NCBI GenBank assembly: GCA_000434555.1
Contig: FR880110.1
Location: 95,284-159,283, forward strand
DNA from: Clostridium sp. CAG:524
GTDB taxonomy: Bacteria; Bacillota_I; Bacilli_A; RF39; UBA660
DNA: 64,000 nucleotides
Direction of reading: 5' to 3'
Both the position numbers and the translations under genes were made by a program. Within the stretch, counting starts at the first letter, position 1; each line of letters begins with the position of its first letter. This document shows, piece after piece, positions 3,096-48,855 of the stretch. The notes under the pieces were generated by a model. It did not search any database. It was not told the origin of the DNA and was given only the letters and a program-made list of their open reading frames with translations.

Positions 3096-4546
3096 TGATA
3101 ACTAAAAATATTAAAGAATTACATGAAGATTTATTAAATAAGAAAATTACTTCAAAAGAACTAGTAGATGAATCATTAAAAAAATGTCATAGTATACAGG
3201 AAGCAACTAATTCATTTGTAACTATAATTGATGATGCGAAAGAAAGAGAAGTAACAGAAGAACTTGTAAGTGGTATACCTTTTGGAGTTAAAGATAACTT
3301 TTCTACTAAAGATATTTTATCAACAGGAAGTTCTAATACATTAAAAGATTATGTTCCATTCTTTGATGCAACTGCTGTACTTAATCTTAAAAATAAAGGC
3401 GCAGTTCCAGTTTCAAAAACTGTTCTTGATGAACTTGGAATGGGCGGAACAGGTACTACAGGACATACAGGCATTGTACATAATCCCTGGGATACTAGTA
3501 GAATGACAGCAGGAAGTTCAGCAGGAAGTGCAGCATCTGTCGCATGTGGATGCTATCCATTTGCTCTTGGAAGTGATACAGGTGACTCAATACGTAAGCC
3601 AGCTGCATACTGTGGAATAGTTGGATATAAACCTACATATGGAATGATTTCAAGATATGGACTTTTTCCATTTGCTTGCTCTCTTGATACAGTTGGTGTA
3701 TTATCAAGAAGTGTAGAAGATGCTGCTATCGCAGTAGATGCTATGAAAGGAAAAGATCCTAAAGATATGACATCTTGGGATTCAAGTGATATTGAATTAT
3801 ATAAAAGTTTAAATAAAGATGTTAAAGGTAAAAAATTATTCTATATTAAAGAAATAACTGATATAGATAATTATAAAAATCCTAGTGAAGAATTAAAAAA
3901 TCATTTAGAAAATTTTAATAAAACAATAGAACTTTGTAAAAAACTTGGTATGGAAGTATATGAAGAAAGTGTTGATAAAAAGTTATTAGATGCAGTTCCA
4001 TCAGTTTATGTAGTGTTATCTTGTGCAGAAGCAACAAGTAATATGTCTAACTTAACTGGAATTAGTTTTGGTCCAAGAGGTGAAGGTGAAACTCCATTTG
4101 AAATAATGAAAGATCACAGAACTAAAGGATTTAGTCCACTTATTAAAAGAAGATTTGTAATTGGTTCTTATGTACTTCAAAAAGAAAACCAAGAAAAATA
4201 TTTCATAAATGCTAAAAGAGTAAGAAGACTTATTGTTAACAAAATGAACGAATTATTTAGTAAATATGATGGACTTATTTTACCTGTAGGTAGTGGTCCT
4301 GCTAAACCTATAGAAGACTCCAAAAATAAATTATCTAGTTCAAATAATATTTTAGAAGACCACTTACAAATAGGTAACTTTGGTGGATATCCATCAATAA
4401 CAATACCAAATGGATTTGTAAATAATCTTCCAGTTGGAGTAAATATAACAGGTAAAGTTAAGGATGATATAAATGTTTTAAATATTGCATACGCTCTTGA
4501 AAGTAATATGGAATATAAAAATCAAATTGCAAAGGAGGTGTTATAA
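3095..4546 (+). CDS. gatA: Asp/Glu-tRNA amidotransferase subunit A
   Basis: Amidase signature is present: GGTGTTGHTG..., AGSSAGSAASVA, GSDTGDSIRKPA. It is translationally coupled to gatC and gatB. Confidence 0.9.
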   Translation: MITKNIKELHEDLLNKKITSKELVDESLKKCHSIQEATNSFVTIIDDAKEREVTEELVSGIPFGVKDNFSTKDILSTGSSNTLKDYVPFFDATAVLNLKNKGAVPVSKTVLDELGMGGTGTTGHTGIVHNPWDTSRMTAGSSAGSAASVACGCYPFALGSDTGDSIRKPAAYCGIVGYKPTYGMISRYGLFPFACSLDTVGVLSRSVEDAAIAVDAMKGKDPKDMTSWDSSDIELYKSLNKDVKGKKLFYIKEITDIDNYKNPSEELKNHLENFNKTIELCKKLGMEVYEESVDKKLLDAVPSVYVVLSCAEATSNMSNLTGISFGPRGEGETPFEIMKDHRTKGFSPLIKRRFVIGSYVLQKENQEKYFINAKRVRRLIVNKMNELFSKYDGLILPVGSGPAKPIEDSKNKLSSSNNILEDHLQIGNFGGYPSITIPNGFVNNLPVGVNITGKVKDDINVLNIAYALESNMEYKNQIAKEVL

Positions 4547-28620: not shown

Positions 28621-31026
28621 ATGTATGATTTTGGTACTCACTTTGAAGTTGATTTAACTAAAAGCAAAACACCATCATCAAATGTATTTAGAGGTAAAAC
28701 ATATAGAATAAGTATATTATCTGATGTTTTAATAAGATTTGAATACAGTGAAACAGGATCATTTAATGATTATCCTACTTTTTTTGCTAGTAATAGATCT
28801 TTTGGTAAACCAAAGATAACAGTAGAAGAAGATAACAATGTATTAATAATCAAAAATGATATATTTATTTTAGAGTATAATAAAGAGAAACCATTTATAG
28901 GCAGTAAGTTAATGCCTGATCAAAATTTAAAAGTAACTATTGCTGGTACTGAAAAAATATGGTATTTTAATCATCCAGAAGTTAAAAACTTTAAAGGAAC
29001 AGCTTATAGTCTTGATGATACTAAAGGTAATATAGATTTTGAAAAAGGATTATTTAGTTTAGATGGATTTACAACATTTGATGACTCTAGAACTCCAATA
29101 CTTGATGCTCATGGAAATGTTTTATCTCCAAACTATAAAAATATAGATACATATTTATTTATATATAATAATGATTTTGGTATAGGACTTCGTGATTATT
29201 TTAATCTTACGTCTTTACCACCATTAATACCAAGATATGCTTTAGGAGTATGGTGGAATAAAAATGAAGCATATGGTGAAAAAGATATACAAAATTTAGT
29301 TTATAATTTTAAGAAATATGATTTACCAATGTCAGTTCTTTTATTAAATGAATGCAATAGAACTAAAAATAATTATTCACCAATAAGTTTTTCTTTTGAT
29401 AAAACTAAATTGCCAAATCCAAGAGGACTAAGTGAGTTCTTACATAAAAATAAAATATATCTAGGAAGCAATATTAAAACAGAAGGATTAATAAGTGTAG
29501 AAGAGGAAAGTTACTTAGAATTTCAAAAATATTACAATAAAGATTTAAATAAAAACATTCCACTTAATGTATATGATCCTAAATTAGTTGATTCATATTT
29601 AAAAGGAATAATTAATCCATTCTTAGATAAAGGTGTAGATTTCTTATGGATAGATGATAATAATAAAGAAAATACTCTTCGTAGTTTTACAATGAATTAT
29701 TTTCTATATAAGAACTTTAATCTAAATAAAGCAAAAAGAAATTTTATAATATCAAGAAATTTTGGAATATGCCCTCATAAATATTCTGCTCTTTATTCAG
29801 GCGAAACTTTAATTAGTTGGAAAACATTAAAACTTCTTCCATTCTTTAATTCAACAGCCGCTAATATAGGTGTTTCTTGGTGGAGTCATGATATTGGTGG
29901 ATACAAGGGTGGAACTGAAGATGCTGAATTATTCATGAGATATGTTCAACTTGGAGTATATAGTCCAATATTAAGACTTTCAAGTGATACAGGTAAATAC
30001 TATAAAAGAGAGCCATGGAAATGGGATGCTAAAACCTATAAAATTGTTCATGATTATTTAAAAATAAGACATAGACTTATACCATATATATATAGTGAAG
30101 CTAAAAAGTATTCATCATTTGGTTCACCATTGATACAACCACTTTACTACAAATATCCAGAAACATATGATGAACCACTTTATAAAAATGAATTCTATTA
30201 TGGTAGTGAATTATTCGTGTGTCCAATTACAACACCTAAAGATGAAATAATGAATAGAGTTGTACATAGAATATTCTTACCTAATGGAGTATGGTATGAC
30301 TTTAAAACTGGTAAGAAATTTACTGGTGGTAATAGATATGTGACATTCTATAAAGATGAAGATTATCCAGTTTATGCTAAAACAGGAGCAATAATTCCAC
30401 TTGCCAAATTAGATCCACAAAATATAAATGATACAAGTGCTCCTAAAACACTTGAAATACAAATATTTCCAGGAAGAAGTAACACATATAAAATGTATGA
30501 AGACGATGGAACTTCTTCAATGTATAAAGAAGGATATAGCTTTACAACTGAAATAAATTATTACTATAAAGAAGATGATTTTTCAGTATCAATTGAACCA
30601 ATTGAAGGAAAACTTGGTATCATCCCTGAAAAACGAAACTACATTATAAGATTTAGAAATACAAAATTTACTGATGGAGTACAAGTGTTCCAAGATGAAG
30701 TAAATGTTAAATGTAAAAGATATACAGATGAAAATGACTTTGTTATTGAATTTAATGATATAAGCACTACAAGTAAAGTATTCGTATATTGTAAGGGTAA
30801 AGATATAGAAATTGACGCGAATAGAGTTATTAATGAAGACTTAGAAGGTATCATAACAGATTTAAAAATAAAAACATCACTAAAAGAAGAAATAGATAAA
30901 ATAATATTTAGTGATTCAAATATCAAAGCAAAAAGAATTGCTATTAGGAAGTTAAGAAGAAAAGGATTACCATCAATTTTCATAAGAATGTTTATGAAGT
31001 TACTTGAATATATTGAAGAAGTATAG
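28621..31026 (+). CDS. Glycoside hydrolase family 31 (alpha-glucosidase/xylosidase-like)
   Basis: PRYALGVWW, FLWIDDNN (nucleophile region), WWSHDIGGY (acid/base region), LRLSS...REPW. The 801-aa length is typical of GH31. Confidence 0.75.
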   Translation: MYDFGTHFEVDLTKSKTPSSNVFRGKTYRISILSDVLIRFEYSETGSFNDYPTFFASNRSFGKPKITVEEDNNVLIIKNDIFILEYNKEKPFIGSKLMPDQNLKVTIAGTEKIWYFNHPEVKNFKGTAYSLDDTKGNIDFEKGLFSLDGFTTFDDSRTPILDAHGNVLSPNYKNIDTYLFIYNNDFGIGLRDYFNLTSLPPLIPRYALGVWWNKNEAYGEKDIQNLVYNFKKYDLPMSVLLLNECNRTKNNYSPISFSFDKTKLPNPRGLSEFLHKNKIYLGSNIKTEGLISVEEESYLEFQKYYNKDLNKNIPLNVYDPKLVDSYLKGIINPFLDKGVDFLWIDDNNKENTLRSFTMNYFLYKNFNLNKAKRNFIISRNFGICPHKYSALYSGETLISWKTLKLLPFFNSTAANIGVSWWSHDIGGYKGGTEDAELFMRYVQLGVYSPILRLSSDTGKYYKREPWKWDAKTYKIVHDYLKIRHRLIPYIYSEAKKYSSFGSPLIQPLYYKYPETYDEPLYKNEFYYGSELFVCPITTPKDEIMNRVVHRIFLPNGVWYDFKTGKKFTGGNRYVTFYKDEDYPVYAKTGAIIPLAKLDPQNINDTSAPKTLEIQIFPGRSNTYKMYEDDGTSSMYKEGYSFTTEINYYYKEDDFSVSIEPIEGKLGIIPEKRNYIIRFRNTKFTDGVQVFQDEVNVKCKRYTDENDFVIEFNDISTTSKVFVYCKGKDIEIDANRVINEDLEGIITDLKIKTSLKEEIDKIIFSDSNIKAKRIAIRKLRRKGLPSIFIRMFMKLLEYIEEV

Positions 31027-31032
31027 TATAAT
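31004..31032 (+). promoter_or_regulatory. Sigma-A promoter of the leuS leader
   Basis: TTGAAT (31004-31009), 17-nt spacer, TATAAT (31027-31032). Confidence 0.6.
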
Positions 31033-31038
31033 GAACCT

Positions 31039-31236
31039 ATATTTCAGTGATGAAAAGAGTAGTAAATATATATTTATTTATAGAAAGTTAGTGGTTGATG
31101 TAAACTAATAATAAAATATATTGAACTTGCTTTTTTAGAAATAACGTTTATGCGCGTTAAGCAAATGAGAAATAGTTTAACTATAAAATAAGGTGGTACC
31201 ACGGCAATAGTCGTCCTTTGATACCATCTTTTTTGT
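31039..31236 (+). promoter_or_regulatory. T-box riboswitch leader, Leu (CUU) specifier
   Basis: AGAAAG bulge motif and a GAUGUAA distal loop. GAA-CUU-G specifier context with CTT at 31126-31128. T-box core AAGGTGGTACCACGG (31190-31204). Terminator AAGGUGGUA / UACCAUCUU (31222-31230) plus a U-run. Confidence 0.8.
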
Positions 31237-31267: not shown

Positions 31268-31630
31268 ATGGAAATATTAAAATTTATTGGTGATTTCTTG
31301 CTGATTTTTGCATTAGTATATATTGTATATAGTGTGTTTTTCAATAAGAAAAGAAAAGATTATAAAGATTTAAAAAAGAATGATGAAATAAAATTCTTCA
31401 TAAGAAAATATGATTTAGATATGAGAAAGACTAAATATAAAAGTTTACTTAGAACACTTACATTTATTAATTCTTTCATTATATCATTAGAAACTACAAT
31501 TGTACTTTATATTGAAAATTATATTGTGAAGATAATAGTGTGTTTTATATCATCAATAATTTTACTATATGTTTTATATACAATAACAGGTAATTATTAT
31601 AAGAAGAAGGAGAATGAAGAAGATGTATGA
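31268..31630 (+). CDS. Small membrane protein (120 aa, ~3 TM) located between the T-box and leuS
   Basis: AAGGAGG RBS. Hydrophobic segments [34 protein letters not shown] and [16 protein letters not shown]. Its 3' end overlaps the leuS start. Confidence 0.6.
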
Positions 31631-34445
31631 TTTTAAGAAAATAGAAGATAAATGGAAAAAATATTGGGAAAGTCATGATTGTTTTAAAACTGATACTAGT
31701 GATTTTAGTAAACCAAAGTATTATGCTTTAGATATGTTTCCTTATCCTAGTGGAGTAGGACTTCATGCAGGACATCCTGAAGGGTATACTGCTACTGACA
31801 TTATTTCAAGAATGAAAAGAATGCAAGGATATAATGTACTTCATCCAATGGGATGGGATGCTTTTGGGCTACCAGCAGAACAATATGCTATACAAACAGG
31901 AAATCATCCGGGAAATTTTACTGAAAAGAATATTGAAACATTTAAAGGTCAACTTAAAAATATAGGTCTTTCATATGATTGGTCTAAAGAAATATCTACA
32001 TGTGATCCTAAATTCTATAAATGGACACAATGGATATTTAAAAGATTATTTGAAGATGGACTTGCTAAAAAAGTTGATATGCCAGTAAATTGGTGTGAAG
32101 AACTTGGTACTGTTCTTGCTAATGATGAGGTAATTGATGGTAAAAGTGAAAGAGGTGGATATCCTGTTGTTCGTAAAAATATGAGTCAATGGGTTATTAA
32201 TATTACAAAATATGCTGATAGATTACTAGAAGGACTTGATGAAATAGATTGGCCAGAGGGTACAAAAGAAATACAAAGATATTGGATAGGTAAAAGTATT
32301 GGTGCTGAAGTTAATTTCAAAGTAAAAAATACTGATTATGATTTTACTGTATTTACTACAAGATGTGATACATTATTTGGTGCAACATATACAGTATTAT
32401 CACCAGAACATCCACTTGTTAAAGAAATAACAACAGAGTCACAAAAGGAAGAAGTAGAAAAATATATAAATGAATGTAAAAGTAAAAGTGAACTTGAAAG
32501 AACAGGTTCTAATGCTGGAAAAACAGGTGTATTCACAGGTGCTTATGCTATAAATCCAGTTAATAATAAAGAAATACCAATATGGATAAGTGATTATGTG
32601 TTAATGTCTTATGGAACTGGTGCTATTATGGCTGTACCTGCTCATGATACAAGAGATTTTGAGTTTGCTACTAAGTTTAATATTCCAATAATACAAGTAT
32701 TAGAAGAAGTAACAGGTAAAGAACAAGAAAATGAAAAACAAAAGAAATCAATAGTTGCAATACTTTATGATAAGATTGAAGACAAATATTTAACTATTAA
32801 CTGGCATTCAAAAGGTGGAAGATTATTTGTAGGTGGAACTATAAAAAATAATGAAACAGATGTTGAATGTGCGATAAGAGAAATAAAAGAAGAAACTGGT
32901 TATACTGATTTTACTCTTAAAGAGGTTGGATTTAAAATAAACCATCATTATTATGCTTACAACAAAGATACTTACTTTGAGATAGAAGCAACACCATTAT
33001 TATTTGAATTAAATTCAAGTAAGCAAGATAAACAAAATTTGGATGAAGATGAAGTTTTTGATATAGAGTGGGTAACTAAAGATATTATAGAAAAAGAGAT
33101 AAAAGATGAATTACATAAAAAAACGTATGAATATGTAACTTGTCCTGATGCTATGACTAATGATGGAATCCATATTAATTCAGGATTTTTAGATGGCCTT
33201 AATAAAGAAGATGCAATTAATACAATGATTAATTGGCTTCATGAACATAATTGTGGTAAAAAGAAAGTTAATTATAGATTAAGAGATTGGATATTCGCAA
33301 GACAAAGATATTGGGGAGAACCTATACCTGTTGTTGAACTAGAAGATGGAGAATACATTGCTCTTAAGGATAGCGAGCTTCCACTTATACTACCTGAACT
33401 TGAAGATTATGCTCCAGGTAAAGATGGAACAGCTCCACTTAATAAAAAAACTGATTGGGTAAACATAGAAATAGATGGTAAAAAAGGTAAAAGAGAAACA
33501 TCAACTATGCCAGGAAGTGCTGGATCTAGTTGGTACTTCTTAAGATATATTGATCCAAATAATGATGAATGTTTAGCAGATTATAAATTATTAGAGCATT
33601 GGATGCCAGTAGATCTATATATTGGTGGTCCAGAACACGCCACAGGACACTTATTATATTCAAGAATGTGGAATAATTATTTATATGATAAAAAAGTAGT
33701 ACCAGTAAAAGAACCATTCAAAAAACTTGTTCATCAGGGAATGATACTTGGTGCTAATGGAATAAAGATGGGTAAAAGGTATCCAGAGTTTGTAGTAAAT
33801 CCTAATGATGTGGTAAATGAATATGGTGCAGATACTTTAAGATTATACGAAATGTTCATGGGACCACTTGAAGCAGATAAGCCATGGAATAATGAAGGTG
33901 TAGTTGGAAGCAAAAGATTTTTAGAAAGAGTTTATAGACAACTTATTGAAAGTGATAAAGTAAAAGATAAAGAAAATAAAAATTTAGAACAACTATATCA
34001 CATCACAGTTAAAAAAGTAACAGAGGACTATGAAAATTTAAAATTCAATACAGCAATAAGTAGTCTTATGATATTTATGAATGCAGTAAGTAAAGAAGAA
34101 TACATAAGTAAAGAATATGCAGTTGGATTTATAAAACTTCTTTATCCAATCGCGCCATTTATATGCGAAGAAATGTATTTAATAATAGATGGCTCACTTG
34201 ATACATTAACATATGCACCATGGCCAACATATAATGAAGAATTAACTAAGTTAGATACAGTTACTATTGCGGTAAGTGTTAATGGTAAATTAAGAGCGAC
34301 ATTTGAAGCTGAAAAAGATTTAGAAAAGGATGAAATACTAAAACTTGCTCATCAAGAAGAAAATGTCATTAGACATTTAGAAGGACACGAAATCATAAAA
34401 GAAATTGTTGTTCCAAATAAAATAGTTAACATAGTTATAAAATAA
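31623..34445 (+). CDS. leuS: Leucine--tRNA ligase carrying an inserted Nudix-hydrolase-like module
   Basis: Start chosen at ATG 31623, 10 nt after AAGGAG (31607-31612); ATG 31614 is only 1 nt from the RBS. Motifs [16 protein letters not shown] (HIGH), CP1 [31 protein letters not shown], and a degenerate KMSKS (GIKMGKRY). A Nudix box is encoded at 32835-32903. Confidence 0.9.
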
Positions 34446-34469
34446 GCAGCATAAAAAGTGCTGCTTTTA
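34444..34469 (+). terminator. Rho-independent terminator after leuS
   Basis: AAGCAGCA (34444-34451) pairs with TGCTGCTT (34459-34466), followed by TT. Confidence 0.7.
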
Positions 34470-34526
34470 TCATTTGAAAACATATTTAATATATGTTATC
34501 ATAAGTAATGAAATAGTGGTGAAAAT

Positions 34527-35144
34527 ATGAATGATAGTTTAGATAAATATTGGGATAATATTCATAAAGAATACATTTCTACTTATGATGGATGGTTCAA
34601 TAAATATATAAATTTATTACATAAAGATGATAATATTGTTGAACTTGGTTGTGGAAGGGCATATACAAGTAAATACCTAATTGATAATGGATTTAAAAAT
34701 ATAATTGCTTGTGATTTTTCAAAAGAAGTATTGAATATTGTGAACAATGAAAATCCAAATATAAAAACAATGCTTTTTGATATGAGTGATGGACTACCTT
34801 TTAATGATAATTCAAAAAATATAATAGTTGCTGATCTTTGTTTACATTACTTTGATTTATCAAAAACAAAATATATTTTTAGTGAAATATATAGAGTATT
34901 AAAAGAAAACGGATATTTAATCGCAAGAGTTAATTCATTTAATGATATACAAATACCACTTAAATCAAAAAAAATAGAAAAGCATTATTATTATGATGGT
35001 AAATTTTATAAGAGATTCTTCGATAAAAATGATTTAGAAGAACTATTTAAAGATTTTAAAATATACAATTTAGAAGAAAAGAAAATGGATAGATATGAAC
35101 ATCCTAAAATATTATGGGAATTTTGTGTAGAAAAAAAGAAATAA
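34527..35144 (+). CDS. Class I SAM-dependent methyltransferase
   Basis: Motif I VELGCGRAY and post-I/II elements IIACDFS, IIVADLCLHY, LKENGYL. Confidence 0.75.
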   Translation: MNDSLDKYWDNIHKEYISTYDGWFNKYINLLHKDDNIVELGCGRAYTSKYLIDNGFKNIIACDFSKEVLNIVNNENPNIKTMLFDMSDGLPFNDNSKNIIVADLCLHYFDLSKTKYIFSEIYRVLKENGYLIARVNSFNDIQIPLKSKKIEKHYYYDGKFYKRFFDKNDLEELFKDFKIYNLEEKKMDRYEHPKILWEFCVEKKK

Positions 35145-35168
35145 TGGTGTTAAGAAAAGATAGATTGT

Positions 35169-35197
35169 TTGCATTTTATGTAAAAAATATGTATAAT
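35169..35197 (+). promoter_or_regulatory. Sigma-A promoter of pssA-psd
   Basis: TTGCAT (35169-35174), 17-nt spacer, TATAAT (35192-35197). Confidence 0.6.
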
Positions 35198-38869: not shown

Positions 38870-38945
38870 GGCTCATTGGTGAAATGGTTAACACATCGCC
38901 CTCTCAAGGCGACATTCAAGGGTTCAAATCCCTTATGAGTCACCA
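38870..38945 (+). tRNA. tRNA-Glu, anticodon CUC
   Basis: Hand-folded cloverleaf of 76 nt. Acceptor GGCTCAT/ATGAGTC (one G-U), D arm GTG/CAC, anticodon stem TCGCC/GGCGA with loop CT-CTC-AA, T arm AAGGG-TTCAAAT-CCCTT, and an encoded CCA. Overall similar to Bacillus tRNA-Glu. Confidence 0.8.
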
Positions 38946-48768: not shown

Positions 48769-48855
48769 TGGTGCAAGAAAAGGGAATCGAACCCTCAAGG
48801 TATTACTACCGGCAGATTTTGAGTCTGCTGCGTCTACCAATTCCGCCACTCTTGC
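48769..48855 (-). tRNA. tRNA-Leu, anticodon CAA
   Basis: Reverse complement GCAAGAGTGGCGGAATTGGTAGACGCAGCAGACTCAAAATCTGC CGGTAGTAATACCTTG AGGGTTCGATTCCCTTTTCTTGCACCA. Anticodon stem GCAGA/TCTGC with loop CT-CAA-AA, a long variable arm, and an encoded CCA. Confidence 0.85.

Follow-up and report, generated by a model that had tools for sequence, protein, structure and literature searches.

In the mammalian LysRS-Ap4A-NUDT2 axis, an aminoacyl-tRNA synthetase (aaRS) makes diadenosine tetraphosphate (Ap4A) and a Nudix hydrolase removes it. To our knowledge, new catalytic domains inside aaRSs are rare, and in bacteria they are mostly editing modules. The aaRSs are a main source of Ap4A, while Nudix enzymes, RppH included, degrade Ap4A and remove Np4A caps (PMC10148737). 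Here, we analyzed the gene of a leucyl-tRNA synthetase (LeuRS), leuS, in which a Nudix hydrolase domain is nested within the CP1 editing domain. The gene lies in a stretch of 64,000 nucleotides (nt) from Clostridium sp. CAG:524 (assembly GCA_000434555.1, contig FR880110.1, positions 95,284–159,283 of the forward strand), which is hereafter called the window.

Canonical bacterial LeuRS, as represented by the enzymes of Thermus thermophilus (1H3N/2BYT) and Escherichia coli (4AQ7) and by the CP1 domain of Streptococcus pneumoniae (4K47), is colinear throughout with the LeuRS of the window and carries the same motifs. The differences are ~141 extra Nudix residues, which replace a loop of 6–15 residues, and the sequence KMGKR, which stands in place of KMSKS in the clade of the window. 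A first-pass annotation of this DNA had known of no aaRS-Nudix fusion, and our full-text literature searches on Nudix with LeuRS or aaRS likewise found no description of one. In the main text of a large Nudix-clan survey (PMC5389931), neither 'tRNA synthetase' nor 'tRNA ligase' occurs. The NCBIfam matches of the LeuRS protein include no curated LeuRS-Nudix model or name, and the source names of these proteins are 'leucine--tRNA ligase', 'leucyl-tRNA synthetase' and 'class I tRNA ligase family protein'. What we describe is an architecture that had gone unrecognised among numerous public sequences; it does not amount to a new kind of system.

The leuS gene is one unbroken open reading frame (ORF) on the forward strand (31614..34445), which encodes 943 amino acids (aa) from the ATG at 31614, the codon from which all the LeuRS residues are numbered here. 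The gene and the parts of it that concern the insert are as follows:

31614..34445, forward strand: leuS, leucyl-tRNA synthetase (TIGR00396, 1016 bits; Pfam tRNA-synt_1, tRNA-synt_1_2 and Anticodon_1)
32277..32708, forward strand: CP1 editing domain, N-terminal part (residues ~222–365; T. thermophilus LeuRS 216–364, S. pneumoniae CP1 3–138)
32709..33152, forward strand: Nudix hydrolase domain nested in the CP1 loop (residues 366–513; folded core ~375–509)
32835..32903, forward strand: Nudix box (G408 to Y430), read in the sequence as G408-TIKNN-E414-TDVECAI-R422E423-I-K-E426E427-T-G429-Y430
32943..32966, forward strand: X-loop signature HHYYAYNK (residues 444–451, +14 to +21 after the Nudix box)
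33153..33269, forward strand: CP1 editing domain, C-terminal part (S. pneumoniae CP1 145–184, T. thermophilus LeuRS 378–440), leading to the catalytic core

The first-pass annotation had proposed a Nudix module inside LeuRS, and the profile searches bear this out. Searched alone, the insert scored 46.9 bits against PF00293 NUDIX (E = 3.5e-12), clearly above the gathering cut-off of 21.1, and within the full LeuRS protein the same match reached 42.2 bits. The flanks matched TIGR00396 (leuS_bact) with 1016 bits against a cut-off of 548.4, in three stretches broken by the insert. The Pfam editing domain PF13603 (224.6 bits; residues 222–376, profile positions 1–153 of 185) is split by the insert at about profile position 153. 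Segment 32709–33152 translates exactly as had been quoted. The protein is indeed longer than a typical LeuRS, and the earlier estimate of ~135 aa for the excess was slightly low, since the difference from relatives of 799 aa is 141–144 aa.

Alignment to T. thermophilus LeuRS and to S. pneumoniae CP1 fixed the insertion point between residues 364 and 378 of the former and residues 138 and 145 of the latter. The nesting site is a short, variable surface loop of CP1, which follows AVPAHD and precedes the strand-helix segment DGxHxNSxFLxGL, and between the alignment anchors there are 157 residues in the window and 16 in insert-less orthologues. A 43-sequence alignment of the clade shows no variation in the motifs H51-A-G-H54, K718-M-x-K721, T248-T249-R250-x-D252-T253 and A343-H344-D345, and the catalytic and editing motifs of LeuRS are intact beside the Nudix insert. 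The window shares the sequence KMGKR(YPEF) in its KMSKS loop (33765–33779, residues 718–722) with most of the clade, and both lysines are invariant; at least one clade member, P0112, retains the canonical KMSKSRGN.

The Nudix box lies where the first-pass annotation had placed it, with the catalytic glutamates intact, and matches the pattern GX5EX7REUXEEXGU with its metal-binding Glu residues. No variation was seen among 43 homologues at G407/G408, E414, E426, E427, G429 and Y430, while at least 90% of them have R422 and E423. In the X-loop, H444, H445, Y446 and N450 are invariant, while Y447, A448 and K451 are conserved in at least 90% of the same homologues. The Nudix catalytic residues are likewise invariant in a 26-sequence alignment, from which the insert was modelled with AlphaFold2 (AF2), giving a mean pLDDT of 91, a pTM of 0.86 and an alpha/beta/alpha Nudix fold. 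A Foldseek search of this model against the PDB returned 460 matches at E ≤ 0.001, and those listed are Nudix enzymes. The full-length AF2 model gave the block of insert residues 361–510 a pLDDT of 81–94, as good as that of CP1, and its pTM of only 0.62 does not define the relative orientation of the domains. We take the insert, on the strength of its predicted fold, to be an autonomously folding Nudix domain that appears catalytically complete in its sequence motifs. The GC content of the insert is unremarkable, and no direct or inverted flanking repeats were found at its ends except AT-rich chance matches.

The Nudix-in-LeuRS architecture is not peculiar to the genome of the window, being widespread in uncultured gut Bacilli and also found in distant LeuRS. 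A scan of the GTDB species representatives with the insert yielded at least 490 stretches that encode a relative of it, and the best 80 loci were examined. Almost all of these belong to uncultured gut metagenome-assembled genomes (MAGs), whose taxonomic labels are Bacilli, Tenericutes, Mycoplasmatota or Erysipelotrichaceae; the samples came from humans, rabbits, ruminants, chickens and mice. One of the names involved, Ca. Alloscybalousia, is a Bacilli taxon in the NCBI taxonomy, while 'Ca. Scybalousia' is a Bacteroidales homonym. There were 81 loci in which the N-terminal part of LeuRS, the Nudix domain and the C-terminal part of LeuRS all matched, and in 78 of them the three parts are contiguous, in one frame and joined at the same site. 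The remaining three change frame between the parts; in two of them, L001 and L002, the assembly is error-prone and the neighbouring genes are broken up as well. This survey of related genomes agrees with the architecture that had been proposed, and both chance and the assembly chimera that would have undone the proposal are excluded, as the 78 in-frame loci come from independent assemblies.

One locus, L008, lies on a closed chromosome of 1.53 Mb (CP091739.1, 'MAG: Clostridium sp. nC27_bin.11') and matches the insert at 100%, and this genome and the window may represent the same species. Its leuS shows frame changes, which are probably long-read errors, and its NCBI genus label is at odds with the Bacilli labels of nearly all the related MAGs. 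A word-indexed search with the insert returned short proteins only, and their contexts were either the frameshifted long-read leuS genes of L001 and L002 or chimeric short contigs. Four of these database proteins (P0003, P0011, P0013 and P0009) switch to unrelated sequence at or beside the REIKEETGY segment of the Nudix box; such switches suggest that the conserved motif seeded chimeric assemblies, and matches to fragments should be read with this caution. The plasmid collection contained no relative except one free-standing Nudix hydrolase of 29% identity.

The length of the insert is nearly constant: of 58 cases, 53 have 171 residues separating the anchor AVPAHD from the anchor DGxH. Selection was judged from comparisons of nonsynonymous distance (dN) and from the eight closest pairs. 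Over 2775 pairs, the median dN of the insert was 0.294, against 0.377 for the LeuRS body and 0.286 for CP1, and for the eight closest pairs the ratio of nonsynonymous to synonymous distance (dN/dS) was ~0.06. For distant pairs, saturation of dS in this AT-rich lineage deprives dN/dS of its information. Where the identity of the LeuRS body is down to 45–53%, that of the insert is still 62–68%. By these values, the insert is under purifying selection no weaker than that on LeuRS. The earlier view that the insert looks like a functional domain and not debris is upheld by the Pfam score, the predicted fold, the invariant catalytic residues and this purifying selection.

The nearest relatives of the window differ in the presence of the insert. 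A full-protein search returned P0014, which is identical to the protein of the window and represents a cluster of 585 members, together with 73 proteins of 936–954 aa and ~70% identity, all with PF00293. The same search returned 46 proteins of 798–799 aa without PF00293, with 83–98% identity over the best local alignment, which covers 46% of the query. The insert-less loci are syntenic with the window, which rules out that their 799-aa proteins are paralogues: the gene order of L085 (P0015) is that of the window (DUF87, GH31, small ORF, leuS, methyltransferase, CDP-alcohol phosphatidyltransferase (PssA) and PS decarboxylase (Psd)), and L083 and L084 (P0045) share the upstream order DUF87, GH31, small ORF and leuS. 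In another, near-conspecific insert-less relative, L086 (P0016), the methyltransferase gene (window 34527–35144) is missing between leuS and the CDP-alcohol phosphatidyltransferase gene, as seen when its positions 3658–3697 are compared with window 34448–35174.

A neighbour-joining tree of the LeuRS body placed the window and the insert-less sequences, and these only, in one clade with 100% bootstrap, while a monophyly of the insert-less sequences that excludes the window received 0%. This clade is nested deep inside the insert-bearing radiation. The insert-less alleles carry a canonical Bacilli loop, VLK-GGDITKEAYTK-DG or its GGNIEVEAYTK variant (compare VLEG...AYTEDG in S. pneumoniae), and the natural short loop of the L086 allele is KGGDITKEAYTK. 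A simple deletion was rejected as the origin of these alleles, as the canonical loop is not obtainable by excising the insert. A recent lateral gain of the insert in the lineage of the window is not supported either, since the distances of the insert fit vertical descent: the insert of the window differs from those of its nearest insert-bearing relatives by p = 0.33–0.40, with a vertical expectation of 0.353 ± 0.057 at that divergence of the body, and the closest known insert is 24% different. An older gain or a re-gain might still have occurred.

The L086 allele, which was found in two samples at 3x coverage, has the short loop, and from 32334 onward it shares 92–99% nt identity with the window on either side of the loop. 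The identity dips at the junction, to 92% in the 90 nt before and 88% in the 90 nt after, and over the first 720 nt of leuS it is 72–80%. The leuS gene of L086 is therefore a mosaic, whose first 720 nt derive from a divergent lineage. In the simplest reading of these alignments, the insert is ancestral and a short-loop patch replaced it at least once, possibly repeatedly, by homologous recombination, while the lineage of the window kept it. LeuRS does not need the Nudix module, because the nearest relatives lack the insert at a syntenic locus.

Beyond the clade, 1.84 billion representatives were searched exhaustively with the insert by phmmer. There were 279 matches at E ≤ 0.001, and 84 of the best 148 are LeuRS or fragments of LeuRS. 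At least one strict Nudix box occurs in 69 of these 84 LeuRS-linked relatives. In 31 of them the box lies at the same site, between xPxHD and RQRYWG, and in eight it lies before the T-rich motif, i.e., before CP1. Pfam scans were run on the LeuRS members of 1100–1180 aa, and these carry extra domains before and/or inside CP1. Two or three Nudix domains were detected in P0138, P0150, P0151, P0158, P0166 and P0181, while P0186, from a Patescibacteria MAG, combines Nudix with Ser_hydrolase (PF06821) and P0197 combines Nudix with HAD_2 (PF13419). The CP1 region looks like a hotspot that hosts hydrolase domains.

The distant LeuRS-embedded copies have a related X-loop, [FY][FY]-A-x-[HN]-K-x-x-NR, which is also found in free-standing Nudix proteins of 150–200 aa. 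None of the free-standing relatives reached an NCBIfam cut-off, and their usual best weak match was RppH, with 20–38 bits against cut-offs of 116–259. The same subfamily was seen in other hosts. P0249 is an IleRS-like protein of 1345 aa (tRNA-synt_1, Anticodon_1 and DUF5915) with a Nudix domain at 270–396 and a His_Phos_1 domain at 665–809. In P0233, an RNase PH/PNPase-like protein, the Nudix domain is nested between RNase_PH and RNase_PH_C. Such RNase PH-Nudix proteins of ~360–570 aa include P0233, P0285–P0290, P0297 and P0302; the architecture comprises about nine clusters, reaches down to 34% identity and occurs on contigs as long as 284 kb, and Patescibacteria PNPases are among its nearest relatives. 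Judged from these domain architectures, the Nudix subfamily is strongly and specifically associated with LeuRS and with other RNA- and tRNA-end enzymes.

The leuS gene is preceded and followed by further elements, all of which are on the forward strand:

31004..31032, forward strand: promoter-like site TTGAAT-17-TATAAT (10/12 match to the consensus), 5' of the T-box leader
31046..31221, forward strand: T-box leader (Rfam RF00230, full-length match, 95.8 bits against a gathering score of 93)
31268..31630, forward strand: small hydrophobic ORF of 120 aa between the T-box and leuS, overlapping the start of leuS
34444..34466, forward strand: terminator-like hairpin followed by a T-rich stretch (9-bp stem with four G-C pairs), directly after the leuS stop

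Regulation of LeuRS by a leucine T-box is typical of Firmicutes. The specifier here, read from the alignment and the sequence, is CUU (Leu) at 31126–31128, within the specifier loop UGAA-CUU-G, and leuS appears to be controlled by this Leu-specific leader. Promoter-like sites are as frequent in shuffled sequence, and the one at 31004–31032 is plausible only from its position just 5' of the T-box; terminator-like sites number three in the region, with 0.7 expected. The small hydrophobic ORF has counterparts of 116–120 aa at the same position in L083, L085 and L086, and neither it nor these counterparts had a Pfam match. On this arrangement, the T-box riboswitch would govern both the 120-aa ORF and leuS. 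Two in-frame ATGs, at 31614 and 31623, follow the Shine-Dalgarno sequence AAGGAG (31607–31612) at distances of 1 nt and 10 nt, respectively. The start is probably the ATG at 31623, giving a protein of 940 aa, because of the Shine-Dalgarno spacing and because the identical database protein P0014 has 940 aa. The window also contains a tRNA-Glu(CTC) gene at 38870–38945 (forward strand) and a tRNA-Leu(CAA) gene at 48769–48855 (reverse strand), the latter encoding a cognate substrate of LeuRS.

Taken as a package, we lean slightly towards a bifunctional LeuRS that contains an autonomous, RppH/NudH-like hydrolase of dinucleoside polyphosphates and/or of pyrophosphate-linked RNA 5' ends, and our confidence in the substrate alone is lower than in the whole. 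Under this reading, the protein is the housekeeping LeuRS, regulated by a Leu T-box, of an uncultured gut bacterium of the Bacilli class with a small genome. Its LeuRS part would aminoacylate and edit as usual, while the Nudix part would be an autonomous, Mg-dependent hydrolase of a subfamily marked by the X-loop [FY][FY]AxxK. Its likeliest substrates would be Ap4A-type dinucleoside polyphosphates and/or RNA 5' ends that bear Np4 or pyrophosphate, with the dual activity of RppH/NudH on dinucleoside polyphosphates and RNA 5' ends as the model. Because the Nudix domain lies inside leuS behind a Leu T-box, each LeuRS molecule would come with one copy of it, and uncharged tRNA-Leu would induce both. 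The module is probably old in the lineage and is held by purifying selection, and close relatives would have exchanged it for the canonical 16-residue loop by short-patch homologous recombination. From motifs, fold and kinship we infer the catalytic activity of the domain, the class of its substrate and any coupling to the chemistry of LeuRS.

Several hints bear on the substrate. The best sequence matches among solved structures were the Nudix domains of Dcp2 (profile E = 1.7e-7 over ~120 residues), with B. subtilis RppH at E = 3e-3, and the top NCBIfam match of the insert was YtkD/RppH (TIGR02705) with 30.5 bits, below the cut-off of 154.4. Among the listed Foldseek matches, the highest TM-score belonged to the Aquifex Ap4A hydrolase 3i7u (0.71 by query and 0.81 by target), and E. 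coli RppH recurred, including its Ap4A complex 7SP3. The X-loop, ~17 aa downstream of the Nudix box, is a known determinant of specificity (PMC5389931), and a tyrosine in it has been linked to ApnA hydrolases (Dunn et al. 1999, as summarised in PMC5389931). In the insert, Y446 and Y447 stand at +16 and +17 after the box, a feature which, in a putative register with NUDT2 Y87, correlates with ApnA activity without being diagnostic of it. These hints are weak, yet all of them point the same way, to RppH/NudH, Dcp2 and the Ap4A hydrolases. The suggestion of the first-pass annotation that a built-in Nudix domain could act on Ap4A is plausible, while the hydrolysis of aminoacyl-adenylates, which it had also raised, is unsupported.

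A number of points weigh against the favoured reading. The hydrolase activity is predicted from sequence and from a modelled fold. No curated Nudix cut-off was reached in the NCBIfam scan of the insert, the scores being 13–14 bits for the RppH models of PRK00714 (cut-offs 116–139), 26 for NudB (103) and 30.5 for YtkD (154.4), with MutT and NudE far below theirs. The Foldseek neighbours are generic Nudix enzymes with TM-scores of 0.5–0.7 that do not resolve the substrate class, and assignment to any of these curated Nudix subfamilies was rejected on these neighbours together with the NCBIfam scores far below cut-off. The tyrosine of the X-loop is suggestive of ApnA hydrolysis at most. Firmicutes normally degrade Ap4A by the HD-domain enzyme YqeK (PMC10148737). 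Tethering would gain a hydrolase little kinetically if its substrate is a freely diffusing product, and at its pTM of 0.62 the full-length model does not fix where the Nudix site lies relative to the LeuRS sites. The HAD and serine-hydrolase domains at the same spot in related LeuRS fit a generic hosting of hydrolases equally well.

That last point leads to the main rival, which we rate as somewhat unlikely, namely that the insert is an active house-cleaning hydrolase of damaged or non-canonical nucleoside triphosphates or of a cofactor precursor, with a chemistry unrelated to LeuRS. The CP1 loop would then be a permissive site in an essential, constitutive gene of a streamlined genome, and fusion would secure expression only. 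Other hydrolases do occupy the hotspot, where P0197 carries HAD_2, P0186 carries Ser_hydrolase and some LeuRS have as many as three Nudix copies; the same subfamily is nested in IleRS-like (with His_Phos_1) and RNase PH/PNPase-like hosts and also stands free, and the hosts seen here belong to small-genome lineages, including the 1.53-Mb chromosome of L008 and one Patescibacteria protein. The loss of the insert in close relatives whose LeuRS is otherwise visibly unchanged, and the weak NudB-like match, are also in its favour. However, random piggy-backing predicts neither the LeuRS linkage of 84 of the 148 best relatives nor other hosts that are RNA and tRNA enzymes; the insert is no less conserved than LeuRS, and the weak similarities favour RNA-end and ApnA enzymes over MutT-type sanitisers. 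These same hosts and similarities bear on a distinctly unlikely alternative, a tRNA-coupled third catalytic site on CP1, the domain that binds the acceptor end of tRNA. It would remove, for example, a 5'-triphosphate, NAD or Np4 cap from the 5' end of tRNA-Leu, which is adjacent to CCA, or would extend proofreading by acting on an intermediate bound to LeuRS. Among solved structures, the insert is closest in sequence to the RNA 5'-end enzymes Dcp2, BsRppH and g5R, all the hosts found (LeuRS, IleRS-like and RNase PH/PNPase-like) bind RNA or tRNA ends, and the two insertion sites, before and inside CP1, both keep the domain near the acceptor arm. But RNase P leaves 5'-monophosphate ends on tRNAs, so that there is no obvious substrate; aminoacyl-adenylates are not compounds of the NDP-X type (a nucleoside diphosphate linked to another moiety), and we know of no Nudix enzyme that cleaves them. 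The insert is moreover dispensable in close relatives, and the full-length model (pTM 0.62) offers no domain geometry.

The module might instead have kept the Nudix fold and lost catalysis, serving as a ligand sensor or interaction surface (NrtR-type) that modulates LeuRS, and this we consider highly unlikely. Non-enzymatic Nudix homologues do exist (PMC5389931), and in P0133 KK replaces the RE of the box, but such domains are typically degenerate at the box positions, whereas here at least 90% of the 43 homologues retain the full box, RE and EE pairs included, and a strict box occurs in 69 of the 84 distant LeuRS-linked relatives. The probability of an artefact or selfish element is negligible. 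Some database matches are fragmentary or chimeric (P0003, P0011 and P0013), and error-prone long-read assemblies split leuS (L001, L002 and L008); against this, an assembly chimera or a pseudogene is ruled out by the unbroken ORF, the 78 of 81 loci in frame and the purifying selection, and an intein or mobile element by the Nudix fold, the lack of terminal repeats and the unremarkable GC content, and the Pfam scan of the LeuRS protein found no intein family.

What the locus means depends on how far the favoured reading of a bifunctional LeuRS holds. A conserved, predicted pyrophosphohydrolase in the LeuRS editing domain of many uncultured gut species bears on a well-studied class of enzymes, and the sources that name such proteins name them as plain 'leucine--tRNA ligase'. 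If the domain acts on Ap4A or Np4-capped RNA, 'maker' and 'breaker' of an alarmone or cap would stand on one polypeptide under T-box control by tRNA charging, of which we know no earlier case, and the long-debated role of synthetase-derived Ap4A would become directly testable. The insert-plus and insert-minus alleles in near-identical backgrounds (the window and L086) offer a natural control for this. A bolder and rather unlikely proposal is that the Nudix domain gives LeuRS a true third active site, coupled to tRNA handling and carried on the mobile CP1 beside the acceptor end, where it would cleave ppp-, NAD- or Np4-caps or destroy Ap4A/Np4N at source. If so, the wider family would be an unrecognised class of synthetase-embedded quality control of nucleotides and RNA ends in small-genome bacteria, which would span LeuRS with one to three Nudix domains and with HAD, Ser-hydrolase or His-phosphatase domains, as well as IleRS-like and RNase PH/PNPase-like hosts. 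Drugs such as the benzoxaboroles target the CP1 domain of LeuRS, and inhibitor access in these gut commensals may be altered by a large domain next to the editing pocket.

Compared with the described Nudix enzymes, the insert shares with E. coli RppH/NudH (4S2X and 7SP3), an Ap4A/Ap5A hydrolase, RNA 5' pyrophosphohydrolase and Np4A-decapping enzyme, the common Nudix fold, the box and an aromatic X-loop residue, and in its proposed role also the functional link to aaRS-made Ap4A. Identity to E. coli RppH in structural alignments is 13–15%, the NCBIfam cut-offs are widely missed, and the domain is nested here whereas RppH is free-standing. Dcp2 (yeast 2JVB/4KG4) and B. subtilis RppH/YtkD (4JZU) are the best sequence matches of solved structure; of Dcp2, only the Nudix domain aligns, with 22–23% identity in the Foldseek alignments to Schizosaccharomyces pombe Dcp2, and instead of the N-terminal regulatory domain the flanks are LeuRS. 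The Aquifex aeolicus Ap4A hydrolase aq_158 (3I7U/3I7V) is of similar size and has the top TM-score among the listed Foldseek matches, at 19–20% identity and with an E-value no better than that of many other Nudix enzymes. Among the synthetases, IleRS with GNAT (NCBIfam NF040702, 'ileS_w_GNAT', a weak match here) likewise joins a class Ia synthetase to an additional small-molecule enzyme domain, which is of a different enzyme class from the Nudix domain described here. In the LysRS-NUDT2 pair, synthetase and hydrolase are separate proteins of eukaryotic signalling, whereas in the LeuRS of the window both functions would, by analogy, be united on one bacterial polypeptide.

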